IMG/VR virus record: IMGVR_UViG_2718217785_000004
Direction: 5' to 3' (one strand)
Origin: a virus
Lineage: Duplodnaviria > Heunggongvirae > Uroviricota > Caudoviricetes
Length of the DNA stretch: 33,279 nt
Made by a program: the position numbers and the translations under genes. Shown here in pieces: positions 7,802-33,279 of the stretch. Each line of letters starts with the position of its first letter. Positions within the stretch are counted from its first letter, which is position 1. The notes under the pieces are model-generated. The model made no database searches. It was not told where the DNA came from and saw nothing but the letters and a program-made list of their open reading frames with translations.

Positions 7802-8395
7802 CTATTTGTCCCGGTTGGCTAAGGGATGACACAATTTATTCTTTGTCGCTGATGAGGGGAATTTTTTATAGAGCGTGGACAGGCCAATATCAAAAATCAG
7901 CGCCACACGTTGACGAGATTCCCCCGCAGCCAGCAACCGTCCGACCTGCTCCCACTCACCCGCAGTGAGTTTCGGTCGTCTGCCACCAATACGACCTTTG
8001 GCTCTGGCCGCTTCCAGTCCGGCGCGTGTCCGCTCGACAATGAGTTCTCGCTCCATTTCAGCCAGGGCACCCATCACATGAAAGAAAAAACGCCCCATCG
8101 GCGTGCTGGTATCAATAGCATCCGTCAGGCTGCGAAAATTAACGCCGCGTTCGCGCAGTTCCTCAACCAGAATGACCAGATGCCGCATACTACGCCCCAG
8201 CCTGTCCAGCTTCCAGACCACCAGTGTATCCCCCTCAGATAATGTTCTGAGCAGTTTTTTCAGTCCCGGTCGGTCGGACTTTGTGCCGCTGATTTTATCC
8301 TCAAAAATCAGCTCACATCCTGCACACTCCAGCGCATTACGCTGCAATTCCGTATTCTGGTCATTTGTTGATACGCGGACATAGCCAATAAGCAT
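7802..8395 (-). CDS. Serine-recombinase DNA invertase (Hin/Gin/Pin/Cin family)
   Basis: Translation MLIGYVRVSTNDQNT...VVWKLDRLGRS...MGRFFFHVMGALAEMERELI is the canonical resolvase/invertase catalytic domain (Ser in VRVST) with a C-terminal HTH; sits beside an invertible tail-fibre segment. Confidence 0.9.
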   Translation of the reverse strand: MLIGYVRVSTNDQNTELQRNALECAGCELIFEDKISGTKSDRPGLKKLLRTLSEGDTLVVWKLDRLGRSMRHLVILVEELRERGVNFRSLTDAIDTSTPMGRFFFHVMGALAEMERELIVERTRAGLEAARAKGRIGGRRPKLTAGEWEQVGRLLAAGESRQRVALIFDIGLSTLYKKFPSSATKNKLCHPLANRDK

Positions 8396-8450
8396 GATGG
8401 ATCCCCTGAATAAAAACCAGAGATGATGCCACTTGCCCGTTATCTCTGCA

Positions 8451-8476
8451 TTTTCATAAACGTTGGTTTGGGAGAA
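8451..8476. repeat. hix/gix-like inversion crossover site 1 (TTTTCATAAACG TT GGTTTGGGAGAA)
   Basis: Seen in sequence: 26-bp site with imperfect dyad half-sites; its reverse complement shares TTCTCCCAAACCAA with site 2 at 10314..10339 in inverted orientation. Confidence 0.7.
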
Positions 8477-8944
8477 GGTTCGGCATTACCCGTTGGTGTG
8501 CCTGTTCCGTGGCCTTCCGCCACTCCGCCAACAGGCTGGCTGAAATGCAACGGTGCGGCATTTTCTGCTGAAGAATACCCGGAACTGGCAAAGGCTTACC
8601 CGACAAATAAATTGCCTGATTTACGCGGTGAGTTTATTCGTGGCTGGGATGACGGGAGAGGCATTGACCCCGGAAGGATTCTATTGGCTTCACAGGAGCA
8701 TGCAATGCAAAACGTCACTGGTTCAATAGGGAAAATTCAGCTTTTTAAAGATTTAGTTACCAGTGGTCCATTTCGTCATAACGGTAATAACTATCTGACT
8801 ACTGGATTAACAGCGGTTACAGGCGTAGGTAGTGGAGGGCATGGTGTCACAACATTTGATTTCGATATGTCAAGGGTGGCAAATACCGCCAATGAAACTC
8901 GCCCGGTGAACGTTGCATTTAACTACATTGTGAGGGCTGCATAA
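8477..8944 (+). CDS. Silent alternative tail-fibre C-terminal cassette, promoterless in this orientation
   Basis: ORF 8423..8944 reads through crossover site 1 encoding ...FINVGLGEG, matching the ...YLGLGE junction in H; it has no fibre N-terminus of its own. Confidence 0.65.
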   Translation, partial: GSALPVGVPVPWPSATPPTGWLKCNGAAFSAEEYPELAKAYPTNKLPDLRGEFIRGWDDGRGIDPGRILLASQEHAMQNVTGSIGKIQLFKDLVTSGPFRHNGNNYLTTGLTAVTGVGSGGHGVTTFDFDMSRVANTANETRPVNVAFNYIVRAA

Positions 8945-9546
8945 TGGATAACGCTGTATTAAATAGCGAGTTTATTGCTACGAAGGCAGGGGATATTACT
9001 GTTTATAACTATGATGGTGAAACTCGGGAATATATTTCCACTTCAAGTGAATATCTTGCCGTTGGTGTTGGTATCCCGGCATATTCCTGCCTGGATGCAC
9101 CTGGTATACATAGGGAGGGTTATGTTATCCGCCGTTCTGCAGATTTTAACTCATGGGAATATGTGCCAGACCATCGCGGTGAAATCGTCTATAGCACCGA
9201 AACAGGAGAATCAAAAGAAATCACATCTCCGGGTGATTACCCTGAAAATACAACCACTATCGCCCCTTTATCTCCATACGATAAATGGGATGGTGAGAAA
9301 TGGGTGACAGATACCGAGGCACAGCATAGCGCCGCAGTAGACGCGGCAGAAGCACAGCGTCAGTCACTGATTGATGCTGCAATGGTTTCCATTAGTCTGA
9401 TTCAGTTGAAATTGCAGGCCGGGCGGAAGCTGACGCAGGCAGAAACCACCCGGCTTAACGCTGCGCTGGATTATATTGACGCGTTGACGGCAACAGATAC
9501 CAGCACCGCGCCGGATGTCATCTGGCCTGAACTGCCGGAGGCGTAG
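8944..9546 (+). CDS. Tail-fibre assembly chaperone, alternative copy paired with the silent fibre cassette
   Basis: 200-aa ORF with conserved C-terminal ...LDYIDALTATDTSTAPDVIWPELPEA, similar to the C-terminus of the minus-strand chaperone (...LDYLDALELVDTSGAPDIEWPTPP). Confidence 0.7.
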   Translation: MDNAVLNSEFIATKAGDITVYNYDGETREYISTSSEYLAVGVGIPAYSCLDAPGIHREGYVIRRSADFNSWEYVPDHRGEIVYSTETGESKEITSPGDYPENTTTIAPLSPYDKWDGEKWVTDTEAQHSAAVDAAEAQRQSLIDAAMVSISLIQLKLQAGRKLTQAETTRLNAALDYIDALTATDTSTAPDVIWPELPEA

Positions 9547-9949
9547 GCCATTCAATATCTGGCGCACCGGAAGTATCAACCAGTTCCAGTGCGTCCAGAT
9601 AATCCAGCCACAAATTATATTGCGCCAGTTCGTCACCTTTCAGACGACCAATAGCGGCTTTACCGGGCCATTGTTTACTGTTCATGTATTCGTTGGCCTG
9701 GTTAATTAGTAGCTGTCTTTCTGATTGAGTAATTTCAATAAGCTCTTCATGCGTTGGAGGCGGCGCATCGACCCAAGCGGGCAGTCCAGTGCTATCTGCA
9801 CCAAGCATTTTACCTTCAGGCCAGGCAATACCAGCAAATTGGTTGTAGAGGTTAACACTGATTTCAATAGCTGATTCAGGAATAAACCTGCTTTCAGGTT
9901 CAATATAAAATCCGTTATCAACGGCGTCATAAAAGTATCTTGTTTTCAT
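9518..9949 (-). CDS. G: Tail-fibre assembly chaperone G, expressed orientation
   Basis: 143-aa ORF immediately downstream of H; conserved chaperone C-terminus. Confidence 0.75.
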   Translation of the reverse strand: MKTRYFYDAVDNGFYIEPESRFIPESAIEISVNLYNQFAGIAWPEGKMLGADSTGLPAWVDAPPPTHEELIEITQSERQLLINQANEYMNSKQWPGKAAIGRLKGDELAQYNLWLDYLDALELVDTSGAPDIEWPTPPAVQAR

Positions 9950-20086: not shown

Positions 20087-21859
20087 ATGACCATCACCAC
20101 AGACACCACTCTTTTACACGACCCGCGTCGTCAGGCGGCGCTGCTGTACTGGCAGGGGTTTTCCGTGCCGCAGATTGCCGCCATGTTGCAGATGAAACGC
20201 CCGACGGTGCAGAGCTGGAAACAGCGCGACGGCTGGGACAGCGTTGCCCCCATCAGCCGTGTCGAAATGAGTCTGGAAGCGCGGCTGACCCAGCTCATCA
20301 TCAAACCGCAGAAAACCGGCGGGGACTTCAAGGAAATTGACCTGCTGGGACGCCAGATTGAACGACTGGCACGGGTCAACCGTTACAGCCAGACCGGCAA
20401 CGAGGCAGACCTTAATCCGAACATCGCTAACCGCAACAAAGGCGGGCGTCGCAAACCGAAAAAGAATTTTTTCAGTGACGAGGCCATCGAAAAGCTGGAG
20501 CAGATTTTCTTTGAGCAGTCTTTCGAATATCAGTTGCACTGGTATCGCGCCGGGCTTGAGCACCGCATCCGCGATATCCTGAAATCCCGCCAGATTGGCG
20601 CGACGTTTTATTTTTCCCGCGAGGCGCTGCTGCGCGCCCTGAAAACCGGTCATAACCAGATTTTTCTGTCGGCCAGTAAAACGCAGGCGTATGTGTTCCG
20701 CGAATACATCATCGCCTTTGCCCGGCTGGTTGACGTTGACCTGACCGGTGACCCGATTGTCCTGGGCAATAACGGCGCAAAACTGATTTTTCTCGGCACC
20801 AACTCCAACACCGCGCAGAGCCATAACGGCGACCTGTACGTCGACGAGATTTTCTGGATCCCGAATTTTCAGGTACTGCGTAAGGTGGCATCAGGTATGG
20901 CCTCACAGAGTCACCTGCGCTCGACCTATTTCTCCACCCCGTCCACACTGGCGCACGACGCCTACCCGTTCTGGTCGGGTGAACTGTTCAACCGGGGACG
21001 CGCCAGCGCCGCCGAACGCGTGGAAATCGACGTCAGTCATAACGCCCTTGCCGGAGGTCTTCTCTGTGCGGACGGCCAGTGGCGGCAGATTGTCACCATT
21101 GAGGACGCCCTGAAAGGTGGCTGCACACTGTTCGACATTGAGCAGCTCAAACGTGAAAACAGCGCCGACGATTTTAAAAACCTGTTCATGTGTGAATTTG
21201 TTGACGACAAGGCGTCGGTGTTCCCGTTCGAGGAGCTGCAACGCTGCATGGTCGACACGCTGGAAGAATGGGAAGACTATGCGCCGTTTGCCGCCAATCC
21301 GTTCGGCTCACGCCCGGTATGGATTGGTTACGATCCGTCACACCGTGGCGACAGCGCCGGATGCGTGGTACTGGCACCGCCGGTGGTGGCCGGTGGCAAA
21401 TTCAGGATCCTTGAGCGTCACCAGTGGAAAGGCATGGACTTTGCCACTCAGGCTGAATCCATCCGCAAACTCACCGAAAAATACAACGTCGAATACATCG
21501 GTATTGATGCCACCGGCCTCGGTGTCGGCGTGTTCCAGCTCGTGCGCTCGTTCTATCCCGCCGCGCGCGACATCCGCTACACGCCGGAAATGAAAACCGC
21601 AATGGTGCTCAAGGCAAAAGACGTTATTCGCCGTGGCTGTCTGGAATATGACGTCAGCGCCACCGACATCACCAGCTCGTTTATGGCTATCCGCAAGACC
21701 ATGACCAGCAGCGGACGCAGCGCCACCTATGAGGCCAGCCGCAGCGAGGAAGCCAGCCACGCCGACCTCGCCTGGGCGACCATGCACGCCCTGTTAAATG
21801 AGCCACTCACCGCCGGTATCAGCACCCCGCTGACATCCACCATTCTGGAGTTTTACTGA
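20087..21859 (+). CDS. P: Terminase large (ATPase) subunit P
   Basis: ORF 20057..21859; probable start ATG 20087 (MTITTDTTLLHDPRRQ); divergent from O as in P2. Confidence 0.85.
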   Translation: MTITTDTTLLHDPRRQAALLYWQGFSVPQIAAMLQMKRPTVQSWKQRDGWDSVAPISRVEMSLEARLTQLIIKPQKTGGDFKEIDLLGRQIERLARVNRYSQTGNEADLNPNIANRNKGGRRKPKKNFFSDEAIEKLEQIFFEQSFEYQLHWYRAGLEHRIRDILKSRQIGATFYFSREALLRALKTGHNQIFLSASKTQAYVFREYIIAFARLVDVDLTGDPIVLGNNGAKLIFLGTNSNTAQSHNGDLYVDEIFWIPNFQVLRKVASGMASQSHLRSTYFSTPSTLAHDAYPFWSGELFNRGRASAAERVEIDVSHNALAGGLLCADGQWRQIVTIEDALKGGCTLFDIEQLKRENSADDFKNLFMCEFVDDKASVFPFEELQRCMVDTLEEWEDYAPFAANPFGSRPVWIGYDPSHRGDSAGCVVLAPPVVAGGKFRILERHQWKGMDFATQAESIRKLTEKYNVEYIGIDATGLGVGVFQLVRSFYPAARDIRYTPEMKTAMVLKAKDVIRRGCLEYDVSATDITSSFMAIRKTMTSSGRSATYEASRSEEASHADLAWATMHALLNEPLTAGISTPLTSTILEFY

Positions 21860-22893
21860 TGAGCAAGAAAAAAGGGAAAACACCGCAACCTGCGGCAAAA
21901 AAAATGACCGCCAGCGCCCCGAAAATGGAGGCATTCACCTTTGGTGAGCCGGTGCCGGTACTCGACCGCCGTGACATTCTGGATTACGTCGAATGCATCA
22001 GTAACGGCAGATGGTATGAGCCACCGGTCAGCTTTACCGGTCTGGCAAAAAGCCTGCGTGCTGCCGTGCATCACAGCTCACCGATTTACGTCAAACGTAA
22101 TATTCTGGCCTCGACATTTATCCCGCATCCGTGGCTTTCCCAGCAGGATTTCAGCCGCTTTGTGCTGGATTTTCTGGTTTTCGGTAATGCGTTTCTGGAA
22201 AAGCGTTACAGCACCACCGGTAAGGTCATCAGACTGGAAACCTCACCGGCAAAATATACCCGCCGTGGCGTGGAGGAGGATGTTTACTGGTGGGTGCCGT
22301 CCTTCAACGAGCCGACAGCCTTCGCGCCCGGCTCCGTGTTTCACCTGCTGGAGCCGGATATCAATCAGGAGCTGTACGGCCTGCCGGAATATCTCAGCGC
22401 CCTTAACTCTGCCTGGCTGAATGAGTCAGCCACGCTGTTCCGCCGCAAGTATTACGAAAACGGCGCGCATGCCGGATACATCATGTACGTCACCGATGCC
22501 GTGCAGGACCGCAACGATATCGAAACGCTTCGCGAAAACATGGTGAAGTCGAAAGGCCGCAACAACTTTAAAAACCTGTTTCTCTATGCGCCGCAGGGGA
22601 AAGCCGACGGCATAAAAATTATCCCGCTCAGTGAAGTGGCAACGAAAGACGATTTTTTTAATATCAAAAAAGCCAGCGCCGCTGACCTGCTGGACGCGCA
22701 CCGTATCCCCTTTCAGTTGATGGGCGGCAAGCCGGAGAACGTCGGGTCACTGGGAGATATTGAGAAAGTGGCAAAGGTCTTTGTCCGCAATGAGCTTATC
22801 CCGTTACAGGACAGAATTCGGGAAATAAACGGCTGGCTCGGTCAGGAGGTCATCCGCTTTAAAAACTACTCACTGGACACTGACAACGGTTGA
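21859..22893 (+). CDS. Q: Portal protein Q
   Basis: 344-aa ORF; start overlaps P stop (TGATG). Confidence 0.85.
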   Translation: MSKKKGKTPQPAAKKMTASAPKMEAFTFGEPVPVLDRRDILDYVECISNGRWYEPPVSFTGLAKSLRAAVHHSSPIYVKRNILASTFIPHPWLSQQDFSRFVLDFLVFGNAFLEKRYSTTGKVIRLETSPAKYTRRGVEEDVYWWVPSFNEPTAFAPGSVFHLLEPDINQELYGLPEYLSALNSAWLNESATLFRRKYYENGAHAGYIMYVTDAVQDRNDIETLRENMVKSKGRNNFKNLFLYAPQGKADGIKIIPLSEVATKDDFFNIKKASAADLLDAHRIPFQLMGGKPENVGSLGDIEKVAKVFVRNELIPLQDRIREINGWLGQEVIRFKNYSLDTDNG

Positions 22894-23062: not shown

Positions 23063-23081
23063 GTGCTTTCCCCGCCTCGCC
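23063..23081. other. cos site: 19-nt P2-type cohesive-end sequence (reverse complement of GGCGAGGCGGGGAAAGCAC)
   Basis: Seen in sequence GTGCTTTCCCCGCCTCGCC; the match to the P2 cohesive end is from memory; located downstream of Q as in P2. Confidence 0.6.
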
Positions 23082-23324
23082 CGCCCGCTTCATGGGGCGG
23101 TTTTAATGCAGTTGCACAGCCATGTCAAAGCCATGTCAACACTAGCAGTATGTAAAAAGAGCAGATATAAGAAACAAATGCAGTTTCATGCAAAAAGCGA
23201 CACACATCATGTCATGAAACAAAGCCGCTAATGAACACTTGCTTTGGTTATCTTAAGGTTTTATCTTCAGCCTAACCTATTGATTGCATGAAACTAAAAT
23301 GAACTCTCAGCAAGGAACGACTAT

Positions 23325-25283
23325 ATGTCAGATTTCGAAATTAAAATTGATTTGAATGTGCTAAATCACCTAGGGATGAGTCTCTATTCCAATACTCCCG
23401 CGGTACTAACTGAGATTATATCAAATGCATGGGATGCAGATGCTCAAAATGTAGAAATTACACTTGATGTTGAGAAAGGAGAGGTCATCATTAAAGATGA
23501 TGGTCATGGCATGTCTAAAGATGACATTATTAATAAGTTCCTAAAAGTCGGTTATGCTCGCAGGGAACATGGAAGAGCCAAAAGCGATCATCTAAAACGT
23601 CAAGTTATGGGCAGAAAAGGTATTGGTAAGCTTGCCATGTTTTCACTTGCCAATAAAATCCAAGTTTATTCGTACAAAAAGGGGGAACAGCCTCAGGCCT
23701 TTGAGGTAGATGTCAAAGATTTACAGCAAAGTATCAAAGAATCAAAAAACTATATTGCTGACTCCCTTGAAATACCCGAAAATCTTGCTTACGGCACTAC
23801 AATTAAATTATTTGAACTAAAAAAAGCCATTGATAGGACTCAAACTTACCTCAGAAAGCGAATAGCTCGTCGATTTAGCATTATTGGCCCCAACCATAAC
23901 TTTACAGTTAAAATTAATGGGACCGATATTACACCGGCAGATAGAGATTTCCTTTCAGATCTCGAGTTCATTTGGGAATTTGGCGAATCCGACCCTGAAA
24001 GGATAAAATCCTGCACAAACATCACACAAAAAAACATATTACCAAATACTATTACCTTTGAAGGAAAAGATGTAAAAGTTAGTGGGTACATTGGCAGTGT
24101 AGTTAAGCCATCACAGTTAAAGAAAGACCCTGAAATATCTAACAACAGCATTACTGTAATCTCTCACGGACGTGTTTTTGAGGAGGACATATTATTAGAA
24201 TTTGGAAGTGCTAAAGTATTCACCAATTATCTGGTCGGTGAAATAGTCGCCGATTTTCTAGATGATAACGAAAAGCCTGATATGGCAACATCTTCTCGTC
24301 AAAAACTACAACAGAATGATCCAAGATACCCTGTACTTAAAGGTTTTCTGGAAAGAACGCTACAACTAATCGATAAAGATTGGGATAAATGGAGACGCGA
24401 AAAAGGAGTAAATGAAGTTAAAAGTAATACTCCAATAGTAAGTGAATGGCTGAATTCTCTCAAAAAACATGAGAGAGAAAGTGCCGAAAAGTTAATTGGA
24501 CGAGTAAACACATTCCGTTTTTCTGGTAATGAGGAAGAACAAAAAGCAGCAAGAAAAACCGTATTAAAAAATACGGTATTAGCCTTTGAAAGACTTAGAA
24601 TTCAAGACAACCTTGATGCATTAGATAAAATAAGCAACCTTCAATCAGAAAATTTTAAAGATGTATTTGCATCTGTCAATGACATTGAAGCAAGCATGTT
24701 TTATGAAATTACTTCGCAACGCCTTAAAGTAATTGAAAAATTCCAAAAAATAACTGATGAAAATCAGCTTGAAAGAGCTGTACAAATGTATTTATATGAT
24801 CATTTATGGTTATTGGATCCTTCATGGGAAAGAGTCACAGGCACATCTGTTATGGAGCAAACATTGACCAAGGAACTAAAACAGATAAACCCTGATGCTG
24901 CTAGCGGTGCTCGTATTGATATCGCTTTCAAAACCGTTTCTGGCAAGCATGTAATTATTGAGATGAAACGACCTAAAGTGCACCCAGATATAATGAACCT
25001 AGTCGCACAAGGTAATAAATATGTACAGGCAACGACACAATGGTTCTCCAATAACCCTAAAAATTGCCCAGGTGGAAATATACCGCATATAGAAGTAATA
25101 TTCCTGGTTGGCTCTGGATATTTACAAGAGAACCAACACTTTATAAATATGCAATTACTTTCTATCAATGGAAAAATATTGACATATAATGACCTAATCG
25201 TGCAATCAAAACAAGCCTATGCTGAATATCAAGACAAAAAGAATGATGCAGCTAGAATTATGAAAATAGTTGAGGGAATCTAA
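23325..25283 (+). CDS. GHKL-type (Hsp90/MORC-like) ATPase fused to a C-terminal PD-(D/E)xK-like putative nuclease; candidate defence/restriction effector
   Basis: N-box EIISNAWDADAQ (res ~31-41), G1 box DDGHGMS (58-64), G2 box GRKGIGKLAMFS (96-107); C-terminus has D...E-x-K pattern (RIDIAF ... VIIEMKRP; D532, E546, K548). AAGGAA Shine-Dalgarno 8 nt upstream of ATG; low GC relative to phage backbone. Confidence 0.65.
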   Translation: MSDFEIKIDLNVLNHLGMSLYSNTPAVLTEIISNAWDADAQNVEITLDVEKGEVIIKDDGHGMSKDDIINKFLKVGYARREHGRAKSDHLKRQVMGRKGIGKLAMFSLANKIQVYSYKKGEQPQAFEVDVKDLQQSIKESKNYIADSLEIPENLAYGTTIKLFELKKAIDRTQTYLRKRIARRFSIIGPNHNFTVKINGTDITPADRDFLSDLEFIWEFGESDPERIKSCTNITQKNILPNTITFEGKDVKVSGYIGSVVKPSQLKKDPEISNNSITVISHGRVFEEDILLEFGSAKVFTNYLVGEIVADFLDDNEKPDMATSSRQKLQQNDPRYPVLKGFLERTLQLIDKDWDKWRREKGVNEVKSNTPIVSEWLNSLKKHERESAEKLIGRVNTFRFSGNEEEQKAARKTVLKNTVLAFERLRIQDNLDALDKISNLQSENFKDVFASVNDIEASMFYEITSQRLKVIEKFQKITDENQLERAVQMYLYDHLWLLDPSWERVTGTSVMEQTLTKELKQINPDAASGARIDIAFKTVSGKHVIIEMKRPKVHPDIMNLVAQGNKYVQATTQWFSNNPKNCPGGNIPHIEVIFLVGSGYLQENQHFINMQLLSINGKILTYNDLIVQSKQAYAEYQDKKNDAARIMKIVEGI

Positions 25284-25288
25284 TTATA

Positions 25289-25312
25289 CCCCCCTGTTTT
25301 TTGACAGGGGGG
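25289..25312. terminator. GC-rich hairpin between convergent stops (CCCCCCTG-TTTTTTGA-CAGGGGGG), putative bidirectional terminator
   Basis: Seen in sequence between stop of the GHKL gene (25283) and stop of the methyltransferase (25325); no clear flanking U-tract. Confidence 0.45.
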
Positions 25313-25324
25313 ATGACATAAGTT

Positions 25325-26374
25325 TTAAATATTCATTTCTGACAAATGTTTTAAAATAGTTTCACCTACGACCTCACCAAGCCTAACAGGAACAGCATTA
25401 CCTATTAAACGCGCAACTGTTCTCATTTCAATTTTTACATCATCAGGCCAAAACTCATACTTTTCTGGGAATGACTGTAATAGCGCAGCCTCTCTTAAAC
25501 TTAATGCTCTATTTTGGACAGGGTGCCCAAAGCGTCCATTCCCATATCCAATACATTGAGTTGTAATTGTCGGTCCAAGTTTATCCCAACACATTCTCCC
25601 ATATACAGCAGTATATGTAGAACCACTTTCTTTTGTATGACATTTTGCTCTTAGCTCTTCTGGCCAATCACGCCATGTTCCACCAGGTTTTGATGCCATT
25701 ATTCTTTTTATATTAATATCAGATAATGATGCAGAGCGATGTAGTTTATCTCCAGCGTGAACAGCACCGGCACTAATTTCAGGAAGATTACCGATTATAT
25801 CTCGCACCGTTTTATAATCATTCTTCTCATGAGTTGGTGGAATTATTTCTATTTCTCCATATTTTGATGCCAATAACACTAATCTTGAACGACTTTGTGC
25901 CATTCCATAGTCTGGACAAAACACCACCCCATACCAAACAAAATAGCCATCATTTTTAAGAGACTTAATGAAGTCCTTAAAAACCTTATGATTCACCACT
26001 CGGGGAACGTTTTCCATTGTAATAATATCTGGCTTTGCAAATTTAATTTGCTTAGCAAAGCTATAAAGCAAAGACCATCTTTTATCTTTTGAACGTACTA
26101 CCCCTAATTTAGCACTATTGGTATAGCTTGAAAAAGGTTGGCATGGGGCACAACCAGCCAAAACTCGAACCTTCGCTCCTTCGAAATATTTAACTAATTC
26201 GCCGTCCTCAATGTCTGTAACACTTTTCTGGACAAAGAGTGATTTATTATTTGTCTCATAGGCAAATCGACAGGCTGCATCTATATCATAACCTGCAACT
26301 ACATTAAGCCCCGACTTCTGAAGACCGTGAGTCAAGCCACCCGCGCCACAGAATAAATCAACAACCTTAATCAA
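25325..26374 (-). CDS. DNA (cytosine-5)-methyltransferase
   Basis: Motif I DLFCGAGG, motif IV PCQPFS (catalytic Cys), ENV, QSRSR, GNAV motifs; ORF track starts at a TTG at 26476, but AGAAGGAGG Shine-Dalgarno 6 nt before a TTG at 26372..26374 (MIKVVDLFCGAGG) suggests the shorter start. Confidence 0.85.
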   Translation of the reverse strand: MIKVVDLFCGAGGLTHGLQKSGLNVVAGYDIDAACRFAYETNNKSLFVQKSVTDIEDGELVKYFEGAKVRVLAGCAPCQPFSSYTNSAKLGVVRSKDKRWSLLYSFAKQIKFAKPDIITMENVPRVVNHKVFKDFIKSLKNDGYFVWYGVVFCPDYGMAQSRSRLVLLASKYGEIEIIPPTHEKNDYKTVRDIIGNLPEISAGAVHAGDKLHRSASLSDINIKRIMASKPGGTWRDWPEELRAKCHTKESGSTYTAVYGRMCWDKLGPTITTQCIGYGNGRFGHPVQNRALSLREAALLQSFPEKYEFWPDDVKIEMRTVARLIGNAVPVRLGEVVGETILKHLSEMNI

Positions 26375-26437
26375 GATAAACCTCCTTCTAATGCTGTGGG
26401 GATTGTAGCATTGTTCTTTCTCATCATCGATGTTTAC

Positions 26438-26476
26438 TTGATGCTTGATTTGTGAATACAAAATCAAGCATGTCAA
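26438..26476 (-). promoter_or_regulatory. Palindrome GCTTGATTT-N9-AAATCAAGC overlapping a TTGACA -35-like hexamer upstream of the methyltransferase; candidate promoter/operator
   Basis: Seen in sequence in the AT-rich 110-bp gap between A stop and the MTase start; -10 element is weak (ACAAAT). Confidence 0.3.
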
Positions 26477-26485
26477 TCATTATTG

Positions 26486-28765
26486 TTAGTTTGTTTCAAA
26501 TCCCGCCCAACCATCAGAAATCGGATATGAAAACGTTTTCCCATCATAATTTACGGTCGCGCCACGCGCCAGCGCCTCAAGCTCCCATCGCTGCGGCCTG
26601 ATACCGTTCTGAGCAAGGTCAACGCGGATACGGGTAATTTGCATTCGTTCCGACCGGGCCAGTCTGGCCGATGGTGCAATTTCATGTGGTTTTAACGAGC
26701 TTCCGTTTCTTTGCTGACGATTTGGCGTTCTCCGACCGTGTTTTAATGCACCTCTGAGCGCCCTCACGACCTCCGGGTCACTCCATTCGATAACACTGTC
26801 ATCAACCAGATTAAGCACTGCTGCGGCGTGCTCAGAAGGTGTGGGAGCCGGTAACGAAGTATCACCACCGGTGAGTTTTCCACAGTTATTGACAGGACTC
26901 CGAGGCGCGGCGATGCCGCTTTTTAAAGTCAAAGGCTCAACGACCGGCACTTTCGGCACAATGCGCCAGTCCGTCGTTCTGGTGATATGAATATGACGCG
27001 CGCCGAGATGCGGCGCGTAAATGCCGACCACTCTCTCGACTTCTTCCTCGTACTCGTTAACGTCATCCGACGGGCTACGGGCAACCCTGACAGTCTGACA
27101 ATCGCGCGGAACATTTGCCCCACCCTGCGCGCTGATATACAACGCAAAATCACCACTGTCTGCGGCAGCGCGTGCAGCCTCGACGCGTTCGTCAAACTCA
27201 TCAGCAATGCTGACGCCGCGAGGCAATTTGCGTAGTTCACGGTAAGCCCCCATTGTCGGCAGGCCAACCGTTTTAAATTGCGGAATGCGCCACGTTGACG
27301 CCCATGCGGTAACAGCCGCGGCAGTGTCTTTCAGCGGCCTGCCGGTATCGTTATCGAGCTGACCATCCAGTGCATAGCCATCGATGTTTTTTGAAATGTA
27401 TTTCGCGATATACCCCGCAGCACCGCCCCGGTTAAGGTGTTTTGCCTGAAAACGGTTTCGCGCAGCTCCTCTTTCGTCGCCATCCTCTTTGAGCGCGTAG
27501 CGACGCATGATTTCAATAATCTGGTTACGCTGGCGTGGATTACAAAAAAGCATCATATGCCAGTGCGGCGTTCCGTCGTGGTGTGGCTCGACGACTCGCA
27601 AACCGTAGACCTGTAAATCATTATCCTTGAATGCCGTGCGCATCAGGCTCCAGATACGGCAGAGATAACGCTGCGCATCCTTTGGATTAAATGCCTCATC
27701 GTTCCAGCCGTGATTTAGCTGGACGGTTTTACTTTCTCCTTTTCCGACCTGACGTGTCGGGTGATACTTTGACGGCGCGGTCAGCGTGATAAACATCCCC
27801 ACATCACCCTCTGCTGCGGCGTAACGCTCAATACCGGCGATGGTGTTCATCAGCTCCATCCGGCGAATTTCTGGATTAGAAATACTGCCCATCACCTTAC
27901 TGATAAGGTCGATGCGCTCGCCGGTTTCCTTGTTTTCAAGGTCACACGATTTAAGAAACTCCAGATTTGCCTGGCGGCGCGCACGCACATCACGAATGGC
28001 ATGTTTACTGGCATAAGGAGAACGGTCTTTATTGACCTCCCCGACAGCAATCAGTAACGCCTCATGCCAGCGCATACGCTGGCCTTTAAGCTGATGAGTC
28101 CACCACTCATCGTTAAACAGACGGGCAATGGCAGAATATGCCTGCCTCGTGGTTATCTGTCCTTTACGGTATTTTTTCCAGTAGAGCGGGGAAATATTGA
28201 AAGCACGTGCAGCGCCAGCAACATGACCATACAGGTGAGTCTGCGCCTCATCCGTAAACAGCGATTCTTTTTCGCCATGTGCATCAACCCATGCATCGCA
28301 GAGTTCCTCATACATCATGAAAAGCTGCGATGAGATACGGGCGGCAAACTTTTTCAGCTCCTTGTCATTCATTCCAGGCAGGCGCGCATAGTGGTCACGC
28401 TCTGCCAGAAACAGCAACGACGCGTCGGTGTTCATTTCATGGCGCTGATTCACGCGCTCAATGCGCGGCCATAAACGACGCTGAAAAGTAGATGTGAGGA
28501 AATAAAACCCGTGCACCGGGCTTTTATTGCGCCGGATGTAGTCATAGCGTGAAGTAAACAGCGAGCGCAAAAAGTAAGGCAGGCGGTTAATCGTGGATAA
28601 AACACCTTGCACCTGACGCATCTCGTCACGTGTAAGGGGTCTTTCGCGCCCGACGGCCTCGCGTGGCGCGTTCCATGCATAAGCACCGGTAAACGCCTTA
28701 CCGGTGCCTGCAGCAAATGCTGACGGAGGTACGCAGGTGTATTGCTCCTGGAAAGAATGACTCAT
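26486..28765 (-). CDS. A: Replication initiation protein A (rolling-circle nickase)
   Basis: 759-aa ORF, size/position of P2 gpA at the end of the early operon. Confidence 0.85.
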   Translation of the reverse strand: MSHSFQEQYTCVPPSAFAAGTGKAFTGAYAWNAPREAVGRERPLTRDEMRQVQGVLSTINRLPYFLRSLFTSRYDYIRRNKSPVHGFYFLTSTFQRRLWPRIERVNQRHEMNTDASLLFLAERDHYARLPGMNDKELKKFAARISSQLFMMYEELCDAWVDAHGEKESLFTDEAQTHLYGHVAGAARAFNISPLYWKKYRKGQITTRQAYSAIARLFNDEWWTHQLKGQRMRWHEALLIAVGEVNKDRSPYASKHAIRDVRARRQANLEFLKSCDLENKETGERIDLISKVMGSISNPEIRRMELMNTIAGIERYAAAEGDVGMFITLTAPSKYHPTRQVGKGESKTVQLNHGWNDEAFNPKDAQRYLCRIWSLMRTAFKDNDLQVYGLRVVEPHHDGTPHWHMMLFCNPRQRNQIIEIMRRYALKEDGDERGAARNRFQAKHLNRGGAAGYIAKYISKNIDGYALDGQLDNDTGRPLKDTAAAVTAWASTWRIPQFKTVGLPTMGAYRELRKLPRGVSIADEFDERVEAARAAADSGDFALYISAQGGANVPRDCQTVRVARSPSDDVNEYEEEVERVVGIYAPHLGARHIHITRTTDWRIVPKVPVVEPLTLKSGIAAPRSPVNNCGKLTGGDTSLPAPTPSEHAAAVLNLVDDSVIEWSDPEVVRALRGALKHGRRTPNRQQRNGSSLKPHEIAPSARLARSERMQITRIRVDLAQNGIRPQRWELEALARGATVNYDGKTFSYPISDGWAGFETN

Positions 28766-29769
28766 TCACATACACCGGCATAGACACTACTGCAAACTGA
28801 CTTATCATTCACCGAAGCCAGCAAATCAAACTGTGCCCCGCCACGCGTGGTCATCGCCCAGTCACGATAAGACTCAATTCCGTAAGCATCGACAGTAATA
28901 ATATCAATGCGGCGTTCCGCACGACGCGGGTCATGAGTTGACGGGAAGAAAGTAGAATTTCCGCGTCTGGAGCATGCGGCGACAAGTCGCTCCCATTCCG
29001 CAACACGCTTAACCTCTTCCGGCCAGCGACTAAAAATTTCAGCTAATTCAGACTTTCTGGCGTGGATGCAGGGCATACAACCGACACGACTGCATCCCTG
29101 CTGGTATAACGGATTAGGTTTAATTCCATGACGTCTTGCAAATGCAAATACCTCCTCATGCGTCCAGTTCAGAATAGGACGGTATACATGGAGCCCGGGC
29201 GTATTGTCCGCATCCTCTTCCCAGGCAGGCAGACCCGCGCGCGCAGGAGACTCCTGAGCGCGAACCCCCTGCCAGCTAATTACCTCATCAAACTCATTAA
29301 GCGCAGGTAACACGACCTGAGTACGTACTGGCTCATGTTTAAGGTCAAAAGTGCAAAATCTGGCTTTAGTGGAAGGAAATCGCCCTTTCCACATGCACAA
29401 ATCAAGAAATGGGATACCAGTAGGCTTGAGAATTTCCAGCGCACAATTGATGCGCTCTGCCGCTTCCCCCGGAGACATTCCGCACTCTTCAACCAGAGAA
29501 ACAGGCCATTTCTCAGCAATAAACTTGCGCTTACCTTCAATCTGTCGGGAGAAGTCAGCTTTAACCCGTTTAACCGGCCCGAGTCGGTTCTCCAGATAAT
29601 CGAGATACTCCATTGTCTGCGGATGCTCATGCCCGGTGTCTGCAAAAACCGGCAAAAAATGCACACCGCTTTCAATACCAACAAGCCATTGAGCAAGGCT
29701 ATCCTTTCCGCCAGAAACAGAAATAATATTGATAGAGCTTTCAGCTCGGCAGCGGGTATCAACTATCAT
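28762..29769 (-). CDS. PAPS-reductase-family PP-loop protein (phosphoadenosine-phosphosulfate reductase/DndC-like fold)
   Basis: PP-loop motif SVSGGKDS near N-terminus and C-terminal Cys cluster CSRVGCMPC; stop overlaps the A start by 4 bp. Confidence 0.7.
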   Translation of the reverse strand: MIVDTRCRAESSINIISVSGGKDSLAQWLVGIESGVHFLPVFADTGHEHPQTMEYLDYLENRLGPVKRVKADFSRQIEGKRKFIAEKWPVSLVEECGMSPGEAAERINCALEILKPTGIPFLDLCMWKGRFPSTKARFCTFDLKHEPVRTQVVLPALNEFDEVISWQGVRAQESPARAGLPAWEEDADNTPGLHVYRPILNWTHEEVFAFARRHGIKPNPLYQQGCSRVGCMPCIHARKSELAEIFSRWPEEVKRVAEWERLVAACSRRGNSTFFPSTHDPRRAERRIDIITVDAYGIESYRDWAMTTRGGAQFDLLASVNDKSVCSSVYAGVCE

Positions 29770-31552: not shown

Positions 31553-31800
31553 GCATCACGCTGTTCAACCGGTCGGTTATAAAACGCCTCACGTACAGCG
31601 CGATTAAACTCTGGAATGAAAACCCATTTCTCACCGGCGCGGGCCTTCGGCTTATTTGGATCTCGAAGCTCGATAACCGGTAGCTTGTTAGCCTTTATCA
31701 TTTCTGTAACTGCGGTTTTTGGTTTACCCAATAAATCTGCAAACTTTTCCGCATGTACCGCATCAAGCGGGTACTTAATCACATAATCATTAACTTCCAT
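31528..31800 (-). CDS. cox: Cox-like excision/transcriptional regulator
   Basis: 90-aa ORF, first gene of the early operon divergent from C; C-terminal ...RDAWLLWMGL resembles P2 Cox. Confidence 0.7.
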   Translation of the reverse strand: MEVNDYVIKYPLDAVHAEKFADLLGKPKTAVTEMIKANKLPVIELRDPNKPKARAGEKWVFIPEFNRAVREAFYNRPVEQRDAWLLWMGL

Positions 31801-31935
31801 CTATGTTACCCTCATAGGATCCAGCCCCTTAAAAACCGCTTGGAACCGTTTAAGCGGCGCTGGACTCACGCCCGAAAAGGTTCTGGATTAATGACCTTCT
31901 CGGGGAATATAGTCATTAAGTCAGGACTATGTCAA
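31801..31935. promoter_or_regulatory. Lysis-lysogeny switch region with presumed face-to-face Pe/Pc promoters and operators
   Basis: Intergenic region between divergent cox and C; assignment by P2 analogy, individual sites not resolved. Confidence 0.4.
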
Positions 31936-32229
31936 ATGAATATCGCACAGAAATTAAGAGCAATAAGACAATCGGAAGGGCTAACTCAAGCAAAATTCAG
32001 TGAAATCAGCGGTATAGCGTTAGGAACGCTAAAGAATTACGAAGGAGGCCATCAAGACCCTGGCATCCAAGTTGTGTTGCAGGTCACCAATGCACCTCAG
32101 TTCCAAAAATACACACTATGGCTCATGACAGATAAAACAGCGCCGGAAGCGGGACAAATCGCACCGGCTCTCGCGCACATTGGGCCAGAGTCAACAGAAT
32201 CCGACCACTCCGCGAAAAGGATTGGCTAA
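31936..32229 (+). CDS. C: Immunity repressor C
   Basis: Probable start at internal ATG 31936 (MNIAQKLRAIRQSEGLTQAKFSEISGIALGTLKNYEGG... HTH); C-terminal ...APEAGQIAPALAHIGPES resembles P2 C. Confidence 0.8.
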   Translation: MNIAQKLRAIRQSEGLTQAKFSEISGIALGTLKNYEGGHQDPGIQVVLQVTNAPQFQKYTLWLMTDKTAPEAGQIAPALAHIGPESTESDHSAKRIG

Positions 32230-32249: not shown

Positions 32250-32276
32250 TTCACCATTTGCCACCAAAATGGTGAA
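32250..32276 (+). promoter_or_regulatory. Perfect 10-bp inverted repeat TTCACCATTT-N7-AAATGGTGAA between C and int
   Basis: Seen in sequence; preceded by an AT-rich TATATAAAAAT stretch, followed by the int Shine-Dalgarno GGAGGG. Confidence 0.35.
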
Positions 32277-32298
32277 TACAGCGCCGGAGGGCTTTCTT

Positions 32299-33279
32299 AT
32301 GGCAATTAAGAAGCTCGATGATGGTCGCTATGAAGTGGACATTAGACCTCGCGGTCGCGACGGAAAACGCATCCGCAGGAAATTTGAAAGAAAAGCTGAA
32401 GCACTAGCATTTGAGCGATACACAATCGCCAATGCCAGTCAGAAAGAATGGGGAGGCCAGCGAGCAGACCGCCGAACTTTGACAGAATTGCTCGACATCT
32501 GGTGGAAATACCACGGGCAAAACCACGAGCATGGGACAAAAGAGTTTAATCATCTGCTCAAAACCATCAGCGGCATAGGTGATATACCAGTGAGCCGGAT
32601 GAACAAAAGGGCTTTGATGGATTATCGCTCCATGCGACTACGTGATGGCATCAGTGCTGCAACGATAAACCGCGACATGTACCGATTATCCGGCATGTTC
32701 ACAAAATTAATTCAATTGGATGAATTTTCCGGGCAACACCCAATTCACGGACTGCCGCCACTGACGGAGGCTAACCCTGAAATGACGTTCCTGGAAAAAG
32801 CAGAAATCGAAAAACTGCTAAATGTTTTGACTGGTGATGACTTACTTGTCGCGCTTTTATGTCTGAGCACTGGAGGAAGATGGACGGAAGTTGCCACGCT
32901 AAAACCAGCACAGATTACAAGTTGCAGGGTTACCTTCCTGAAAACCAAAAACGGTAAAAAGCGAACAGTGCCGATTTCTGAGGAACTGGAGAAAAAAGTT
33001 AAAGAGGAGGCCAGCGCCAAATTGTTCAAGGTAGATTATGAGAAGTTTTGCGGGATTTTACGCAGAGTGAAACCTGATATACCTCCCAATCAGGCAACCC
33101 ACATTCTGCGGCATACATTCGCAAGCCATTTCATGATGAATGGGGGCAACATAATTGCACTGCAACAGATTCTGGGGCATGCGAGCATTCAGCAGACAAT
33201 GACCTATGCGCACCTTGCGCCTGACTACCTGCAGAACGCCGTCGCTCTGAATCCACTAAAAGGCGGAGTGACGTTATAA
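32299..33279 (+). CDS. int: Tyrosine integrase
   Basis: Probable start at MAIKKLDDGRYEVDIRP (32299); C-terminal catalytic region HILRHTFASH...LGHASIQQTMTYAHL (R-H-R-Y); stop TAA at the last bases of the window. Confidence 0.9.
   Translation: MAIKKLDDGRYEVDIRPRGRDGKRIRRKFERKAEALAFERYTIANASQKEWGGQRADRRTLTELLDIWWKYHGQNHEHGTKEFNHLLKTISGIGDIPVSRMNKRALMDYRSMRLRDGISAATINRDMYRLSGMFTKLIQLDEFSGQHPIHGLPPLTEANPEMTFLEKAEIEKLLNVLTGDDLLVALLCLSTGGRWTEVATLKPAQITSCRVTFLKTKNGKKRTVPISEELEKKVKEEASAKLFKVDYEKFCGILRRVKPDIPPNQATHILRHTFASHFMMNGGNIIALQQILGHASIQQTMTYAHLAPDYLQNAVALNPLKGGVTL

Follow-up and report, generated by a model that had tools for sequence, protein, structure and literature searches.

What is a low-GC pair of genes, one encoding a GHKL ATPase joined to a nuclease and the other a C5-cytosine DNA methyltransferase, doing between the portal and replication genes of a P2-like Escherichia coli prophage? 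The question is raised by IMG/VR virus record IMGVR_UViG_2718217785_000004 (Duplodnaviria; Heunggongvirae; Uroviricota; Caudoviricetes), a stretch of 33,279 nucleotides which, at its full length, we call the window. A preliminary description of this DNA had singled out the two genes as an uncharacterised module of restriction-like or anti-phage character. Our own answer, drawn from sequence and family membership, is that they very probably constitute a self-contained type II restriction–modification (R–M) cassette of the HgiDII/BbrUII family, an accessory (‘moron’) module that the prophage bears in its gpQ–gpA hotspot. The decisive argument for reading this particular locus as R–M is the conserved, orthologous methyltransferase next door, and it is to the two proteins and their association that we turn before weighing what else they might be.

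The restriction endonuclease gene (gene 1; 23325..25283, + strand, 652 aa) belongs to a curated family. It matches the NCBIfam equivalog model NF050001, ‘BbrUII/HgiDII family restriction enzyme’, at 751.4 bits (E 9e-226) against a cut-off of 550, and this match is full-length, with residues 4-651 aligned to profile positions 1-658 of 659; PDLC03419, PADLOC’s REase_II model, also recognises it (2.3e-91). Pfam sees the GHKL domain only (HATPase_c_3, 2.3e-25), and the isolated C-terminal and middle regions gave no Pfam match at default sensitivity. Approximate domain boundaries can nonetheless be drawn: a GHKL ATPase (residues 1-190), an S5/transducer-like middle domain (190-330), a long helical linker (334-475) and a RecB/Shedu-like PD-(D/E)xK nuclease (476-652, encoded by 24750-25280). 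The motifs that define the two active sites are EIISNAWDADA (residues 30-40), DDGHGMS (57-63) and GRKGIGKLAMFS (96-107) at the ATPase end, and RIDIAF (530-535) and IIEMKRP (544-550) at the nuclease end. We aligned 34 homologues at 44-100% identity and then 114 homologues down to 34% identity. The ATP-binding residues E30, N34, D58, G60, G62 and G96-R-K-G-x-G-K102 are invariant in all 114, as is a RecB-like nuclease signature, E483...D532...E546-x-K548...Q562-x-x-x-Y566, within which falls the triad D532/E546/K548 that the preliminary description had proposed as catalytic.

That description had also named the lack of a nuclease fold as a finding that would count against it. What we found is that the C-terminal domain resembles PD-(D/E)xK nucleases, namely NucS (8.3), the nuclease domain of Shedu SduA (7.3), the Upx restriction enzyme (7.1) and FokI (6.7). 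Sequence searches of the PDB are less forthcoming: the full protein retrieved only distant GHKL N-domains (HtpG, TRAP1, MutL), and a 15-sequence profile of the C-terminal domain retrieved nothing meaningful and no sequence relative of the nuclease domain. Taken by its parts, a GHKL ATPase with intact ATP-binding motifs, an S5-like middle domain and a C-terminal restriction-fold domain with E-D-ExK residues, the protein is a paraMORC3.

Its partner (gene 2; 25325..26374, − strand) encodes a 349-aa M.HgiDII-like C5-cytosine DNA methyltransferase, best started at a TTG at 26374 that lies seven bases past an AGGAGG Shine-Dalgarno sequence and opens a protein beginning MIKVVDLFCGAGG. The match to Pfam PF00145 (9.2e-56) covers profile positions 1-323 of 324, TIGR00675 is matched at 130 bits against a cut-off of 100.65, and FCGAGG, PCQ, ENV, QSRSR and GNAVP can all be read in the translation. 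Nuclease and methyltransferase, the latter with all catalytic motifs, are thus separate genes, as in a type II R–M system. The two converge with 41 bp between them, and the space between the stop codons is occupied by a GC-rich hairpin (25284..25316, unstranded; core CCCCCCTGT / ACAGGGGGG) whose predicted RNA fold has a stability of -21.6 kcal/mol (z -3.91), matched by none of 200 shuffles. It is likely to be a bidirectional transcription terminator or insulator; a simple terminator scan did not call it as a canonical T-tailed terminator. A complete methyltransferase gene, convergent and set apart by a hairpin, is just what had been described beforehand.

Do the two genes belong together? Taking one genome per species, we assembled 80 loci with relatives of gene 1 at 34-43% identity, from many bacterial phyla and from archaea, and searched all their open reading frames (ORFs) with the window methyltransferase by phmmer, calling an orthologue at E < 1e-40. 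An orthologue (35-56% identity, median 50%) lies no more than 500 bp from the gene 1 homologue at 61 of the 80 loci and within 5 kb at a further three; five loci have a different C5 methyltransferase, four are cut by a contig end, and at seven (7 of the 76 assessable) no C5 methyltransferase lies within 6 kb. Where the orthologue is adjacent (61 loci), it mostly lies upstream of the gene 1 homologue, reads in the same direction and overlaps it at the ends. Moreover, the target-recognition region of these 61 partners (residues 176-295) varies less, with a mean identity to the window residue of 0.57 as against 0.45 for the catalytic core, and 35 of its positions are at least 95% conserved, which points to one specificity shared by the whole family.

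The same type of methyltransferase is found in other company. On plasmids of Polaromonas (NC_008762.1, H76) and Rhodococcus (NZ_CP021355.1, H82), methyltransferases 48-51% identical to the window’s adjoin MAE_28990/MAE_18760 HEPN-like nucleases and not a GHKL nuclease, and on Campylobacter coli plasmids and in a Listeria record the neighbour of such methyltransferases is a GHKL enzyme that shares just 26% identity with the window’s. This type of methyltransferase therefore partners with several effectors.

Where does the cassette sit, and does it travel? It fills a low-GC island of about 3.4-3.45 kb, bounded by the P2 portal gene/cos on one side and replication gene A on the other, the GC content being 0.35-0.39 over 23.5-26.5 kb compared with 0.52-0.58 in both flanks. 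To its left lies the portal gene gpQ (21859..22893, + strand; PF04860 and the annotation of phage PhiR44_1), followed on the backbone side of the hotspot by a P2-type cos sequence (23063..23081, unstranded), GTGCTTTCCCCGCCTCGCC, the reverse complement of GGCGAGGCGGGGAAAGCAC, read from the sequence and which we take to be the cohesive end of P2. The interval from 23050 to 23116/23134 is homologous to P2, L-413C and other Peduovirus genomes, and resemblance to other P2-like phages ends just beyond cos, at 23117-23135. To its right, backbone homology returns at 26459-26499 (26459 in the case of phage pro147), around the stop codon of the replication gene gpA (26486..28765, − strand; PF05840, E 4.4e-124; ‘replication endonuclease’ in RefSeq). 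Rousset et al. 2022 (PMC9122126) delimit a hotspot by exactly these genes, gpA and gpQ, and it is there that P2 carries old and tin; with backbone homology ending at its borders, the island is cargo of that hotspot, as the preliminary description had it; every coordinate and motif given there also proved correct on checking. Positions 23117 to 23324 (+ strand) make up the left edge of the island together with the AT-rich leader of the restriction gene, as defined by the end of homology and a fall in GC to 0.42 or less. The 41-aa ORF at 23106-23231 is unlikely to be a real gene. A promoter scan of the island returned no convincing site in this leader and a site count no higher than shuffles would give (9 vs 11.5 expected), so that we claim no promoter. 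At the right edge, between the gpA stop and the methyltransferase start, a perfect 11-bp inverted repeat with a 9-nt spacer, ATGCTTGATTT / AAATCAAGCAT (26441..26471, unstranded), may serve as an operator or as the terminator of gpA.

The closest relatives, at 50-68% identity in prophages of Proteus, Shewanella and Gallibacterium, keep the same convergent arrangement and occupy a variety of positions. In Proteus (L082/L083; Proteus mirabilis, 68%) the pair is in the same slot, ordered portal–R–M–gpA; in Shewanella baltica (L084, 59%) it lies between repressor and integrase of a GPA-encoding prophage; in Gallibacterium metagenomes (L085/L086, 50%) it is found between the immunity region and tail genes D/U. 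In Vibrio cholerae (L088) the cassette adjoins a CI repressor, and the contig ends at the gene. The presence of the pair in different slots of different P2-like prophages indicates that the cassette moves as a unit. Among 5426 complete E. coli genomes, 30 carry an identical island; in all 15 of the records listed, its neighbour is the P2 replication gene. The suggestion that the two genes had been acquired together is borne out by their common composition and borders, by the linkage at 61 of 80 loci and by this joint movement.

Is such a system new? It is not, and here the preliminary description, which did not recognise a named defence system and called the module uncharacterised, was mistaken: the island is of a known and catalogued kind, whose architecture has been both named and curated, as the NCBIfam and PADLOC matches show. 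In RefSeq, the identical E. coli gene 1 is called ‘BbrUII/HgiDII family restriction enzyme’ and stands beside a ‘DNA cytosine methyltransferase’ in nearly all of the 15 records listed, and GenBank labels the identical pair in phage PhiR44_1 ‘ParaMORC3’ and ‘Dcm protein’ (a literature search found nothing on PhiR44_1). Two descriptions date from 2008. Iyer, Abhiman & Aravind (PMC2292703) defined paraMORC3 as GHKL plus S5 plus a restriction-fold nuclease with E-D-ExK motifs, prevalent in proteobacteria and found in R–M contexts with cytosine methylases as well as in solitary genes; the window enzyme is architecturally no different and has the same context, and to that description our analysis adds the QxxxY motif (Q562, Y566), a structure model and the methyltransferase linkage counts. 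Orlowski & Bujnicki (PMC2441816) assigned an N-terminal GHKL domain to R.HgiDII and left its C-terminus unassigned.

The founders of the family are R.HgiDII/M.HgiDII of Herpetosiphon, with the site GTCGAC, and BbrUII of Bifidobacterium breve UCC2003, and the likeness to them is close. The window enzyme is above the NF050001 cut-off over its full length and shares the N-terminal GHKL domain with R.HgiDII, a comparison made through the family profile and not by direct pairwise identity. Its partner is, like M.HgiDII, an m5C-type (5-methylcytosine) methyltransferase of about 350 aa, with a target-recognition region conserved across the family. According to PMC5867850, which cites Düsterhöft & Kröger 1991, M.HgiDII (GenBank CAA38941) has been characterised by experiment as an m5C enzyme acting on GTCGAC. 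There are also differences, since the window genes converge on a hairpin whereas most distant loci form a co-directional operon of M then R, and the window cassette rides on a P2-like prophage, its specificity and cleavage being predicted from sequence. The functional guess of the preliminary description, a GHKL restriction-type effector with a protective C5 methyltransferase, is in our judgement the right one.

How might such a cassette work? In the model that we favour, the 349-aa methyltransferase would place 5-methylcytosine on its recognition site across the lysogen chromosome and the prophage, that site being most probably the palindrome GTCGAC, as for HgiDII, to judge from the family and the conserved target-recognition region. 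The 652-aa enzyme would cleave incoming DNA in which the site is unmethylated. Its GHKL module would dimerise on ATP, as in MutL, MORC and Hsp90, and the resulting dimer might clamp DNA and bring two nuclease domains onto both strands of the palindrome, while the intergenic hairpin would insulate the convergent genes from each other. The cassette would then exclude competing phages and plasmids from the lysogen, and could penalise loss of the prophage, like other type II R–M systems.

Several observations weigh against this R–M reading and should be set out together. The E. coli enzyme is known here from its sequence, and its recognition site is assigned by family inference. The window contains 3 GTCGAC sites where 8.3-10.6 would be expected, with none in the island, and this mild depletion is uninformative because GCCGGC, GGCGCC, CAGCTG, TGGCCA and others are far more depleted, reflecting a general avoidance of palindromes. 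An ATPase in a site-specific type II enzyme has no ready explanation, so that the role of ATP is the least certain step of the model; HgiDII itself is listed as an ordinary type IIP enzyme. The invariance of the ATPase motifs in all 114 homologues, from bacteria and archaea alike, means that the ATPase must do something essential. The literature on M.BbrUII is in conflict, with one source making it an N6-adenine methylase (PMC5829577) and another a 5mC methylase homologous to M.HgiDII (PMC5867850). The seven assessable members with no C5 methyltransferase within 6 kb nonetheless score 737-785 bits on NF050001, as high as methyltransferase-linked members, and keep all catalytic residues, so that NF050001 membership alone is no guarantee of an R–M partnership. 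Lastly, VcSduA (Adams et al. 2025, PMC12137116) is a stand-alone Shedu nuclease of the same architecture with no methyltransferase; its gene neighbours grwAB in VSP-II. The protein confers protection both in E. coli, which tolerates it, and in V. cholerae, depends on E27 of the ATPase as well as K557 of the nuclease, and has been proposed to act as a dimeric clamp.

The avoidance of palindromes is itself a property of the whole window, in which GC-rich palindromic hexamers fall well below the expectation of a maximal-order Markov model (GCCGGC 2 vs 30, GGCGCC 0 vs 17.6, CAGCTG 1 vs 15.8, TGGCCA 1 vs 14.9 and AGCGCT 1 vs 14.1).

VcSduA brings us to the strongest competitor, in which gene 1 would be a stand-alone Shedu type 1D immune nuclease whose GHKL module senses infection and licenses non-specific or DNA-end-directed cleavage, the methyltransferase being an independent passenger, either orphan or anti-restriction. 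The resemblance is real: both proteins combine a GHKL ATPase, a middle domain and a DUF4263-like PD-(D/E)xK nuclease, proteins of the GHKL-DUF4263 kind have been classed as Shedu type 1D (Gu et al. 2023, bioRxiv 2023.08.10.552793), VcSduA is active without a methyltransferase, 13 of 15 family C-termini give weak, sub-threshold matches to PF14082 (SduA_C), and the seven solitary members include some that sit by GmrSD-like, AspBHI-like/HNH or PD-(D/E)xK genes. What makes this explanation improbable for the window is that VcSduA has no cognate methyltransferase whereas gene 1 has a conserved one, and not just any methyltransferase but an orthologous one, found alongside at 61 of the 80 distant loci and in all the close relatives that we examined, with a reading frame that usually overlaps the nuclease gene. 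The window protein, moreover, scores 17.3 bits on PF14082, below the Pfam cut-off of 27, and was picked up by none of the PADLOC Shedu models (E up to 0.01), so that it is neither above the PF14082 gathering score nor a single gene without a methyltransferase, as a Shedu would be; and the founders of its family, HgiDII and BbrUII, are sequence-specific restriction enzymes. Might the methyltransferase instead mainly serve the phage, by self-methylating virion DNA against SalI-type restriction or in some epigenetic capacity, with the GHKL nuclease unrelated and concerned with, for example, superinfection exclusion of specific phages? Orphan C5 methyltransferases are common on phages, and the plasmid methyltransferases of about 50% identity that adjoin MAE_28990 HEPN-like nucleases show that the partner can change. 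Set against the 61 linked loci, and against two genes that share composition and borders and move together between the slots of P2-like prophages, this strikes us as a slim prospect.

Slimmer still, to the point of being negligible, is the chance that gene 1 has a housekeeping role as a GHKL paralogue of MutL or HtpG, or that it belongs to a larger methylation-associated system of several genes, MZA/MADS for instance. HtpG, MutL and MzaB models do give weak matches, at 17-32 bits, but these involve the GHKL domain only, within the first ~130-260 residues, and fall far under curated cut-offs of 180-937 bits; the NCBIfam MutL and HtpG models give 20-31 bits, which disposes of the housekeeping chaperone or MutL relationship that the preliminary description had itself raised as an objection. 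We also rejected an MZA/MADS-like multi-gene system on the grounds that there is room for two genes only, the phage backbone beginning directly on both sides.

An altogether broader idea is that HgiDII-family enzymes are clamp nucleases gated by ATP and of the same kind as Shedu type 1D, forming one tightly conserved family with two modes, one restrained by a methyltransferase and the other solitary in defence islands. We regard this as unlikely, if rather less so than the competing accounts of the window considered above, and the reason for entertaining a solitary mode at all is that members above 737 bits on the same model keep all catalytic residues. If there are two modes, the GHKL module, and not methylation state alone, may decide when DNA is cut, and the P2-borne enzyme would become a tractable E. 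coli model for the interconversion of R–M and Shedu systems and for the role of an ATPase in a palindrome cutter. Four solitary loci (L037, L041, L070 and L077) have intact active sites with no C5 methyltransferase within 6 kb, and three of these have suggestive neighbours: a GmrSD_N gene at L037, an AspBHI_N+HNH gene at L041 and a PDDEXK_1 gene at L077. Genomes with solitary copies are those of Streptomyces olivochromogenes A53, Curtobacterium VKM Ac-1376, Rubrobacter marinus and a Cenarchaeum assembly. A solitary copy on a Rubrobacter plasmid has no methyltransferase orthologue on that plasmid at E < 1e-40.

The L037 arrangement resembles grwAB-VcSduA of V. cholerae. A V. cholerae homologue from our own set (P0047) was considered as VcSduA and rejected, as it lies beside a CI repressor in a P2-like prophage and not in VSP-II with grwAB. 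A metagenome-assembled genome of an archaeal sponge symbiont, ‘uncultured Cenarchaeum sp.’ (OY282369.1), contains five homologues of the restriction enzyme (L025, L030, L036, L052 and L060) at 37-38% identity; of these, L036 and L052 were tested and both are over the NF050001 cut-off, and a single M.HgiDII-type methyltransferase lies near any copy, 4.9 kb from L025.

What, then, does the R–M cassette tell us? In one sense it is simply one more type II R–M cassette among the well-documented cargo of the P2 gpA–gpQ hotspot, which public annotation already names correctly. As a phage-borne E. coli member, however, it is a convenient system in which to learn what the ATPase of this family does, and the overlap with Shedu type 1D, together with the solitary members, could show how an immune nuclease gains or loses modification-dependent self-protection. 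The survey of this same cos-proximal slot by Rousset et al. (PMC9122126) lists in Table S5A an arrangement of DNA_methylase and HATPase_c_3 whose entry includes an ASCH gene, which makes it look like the arrangement of Yersinia phage P37 and not the convergent cassette of the window; the systems tested in that study include neither version. Phage P37 (L087, NC_070907.1 133-4125) has a different GHKL-nuclease and C5-methyltransferase pair in the same gpA–cos hotspot, in the order gpA, ASCH, hypothetical, methyltransferase and 670-aa enzyme, all co-directional. Its enzyme, which the record calls no more than ‘hypothetical protein’, shares 26% identity with the window’s and scores 329 bits on NF050001, under the cut-off of 550, with Met at the position of the ExK lysine in the BLAST alignment (ILEFMRP vs the window’s IIEMKRP), and its methyltransferase is 39% identical.

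The remainder of the window offers a few features of its own. A serine recombinase/DNA invertase gene (7802..8395, − strand; Resolvase + HTH_7, 2e-52) lies beside a tail-collar-domain fragment (8423..8944, +) and opposed tail-fibre assembly genes (8944..9546, +, and 9518..9949, −), and this low-GC stretch from 7802 to 9949 looks, by its sequence, like an invertible host-range switch of the Mu G / P1 C type. In the early operon, a 335-aa protein with a PAPS-reductase domain (28762-29769, − strand; PF01507, 1.4e-35), whose gene has an ATGA overlap with the gpA start, is possibly a DNA-modification or anti-defence accessory; the near-identical phage PhiR44_1 has the small genes Orf83, TraR and Orf81 at this position instead. 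The left end of the window is a host cation-efflux gene (FieF/YiiP-like; 1-921, −), and the right end a phage integrase gene (32269-33279, +) preceded by a helix-turn-helix repressor-like gene (31753..32229), from which it follows that one prophage junction lies near 1-1.4 kb and that the window ends inside the prophage or at its int end.

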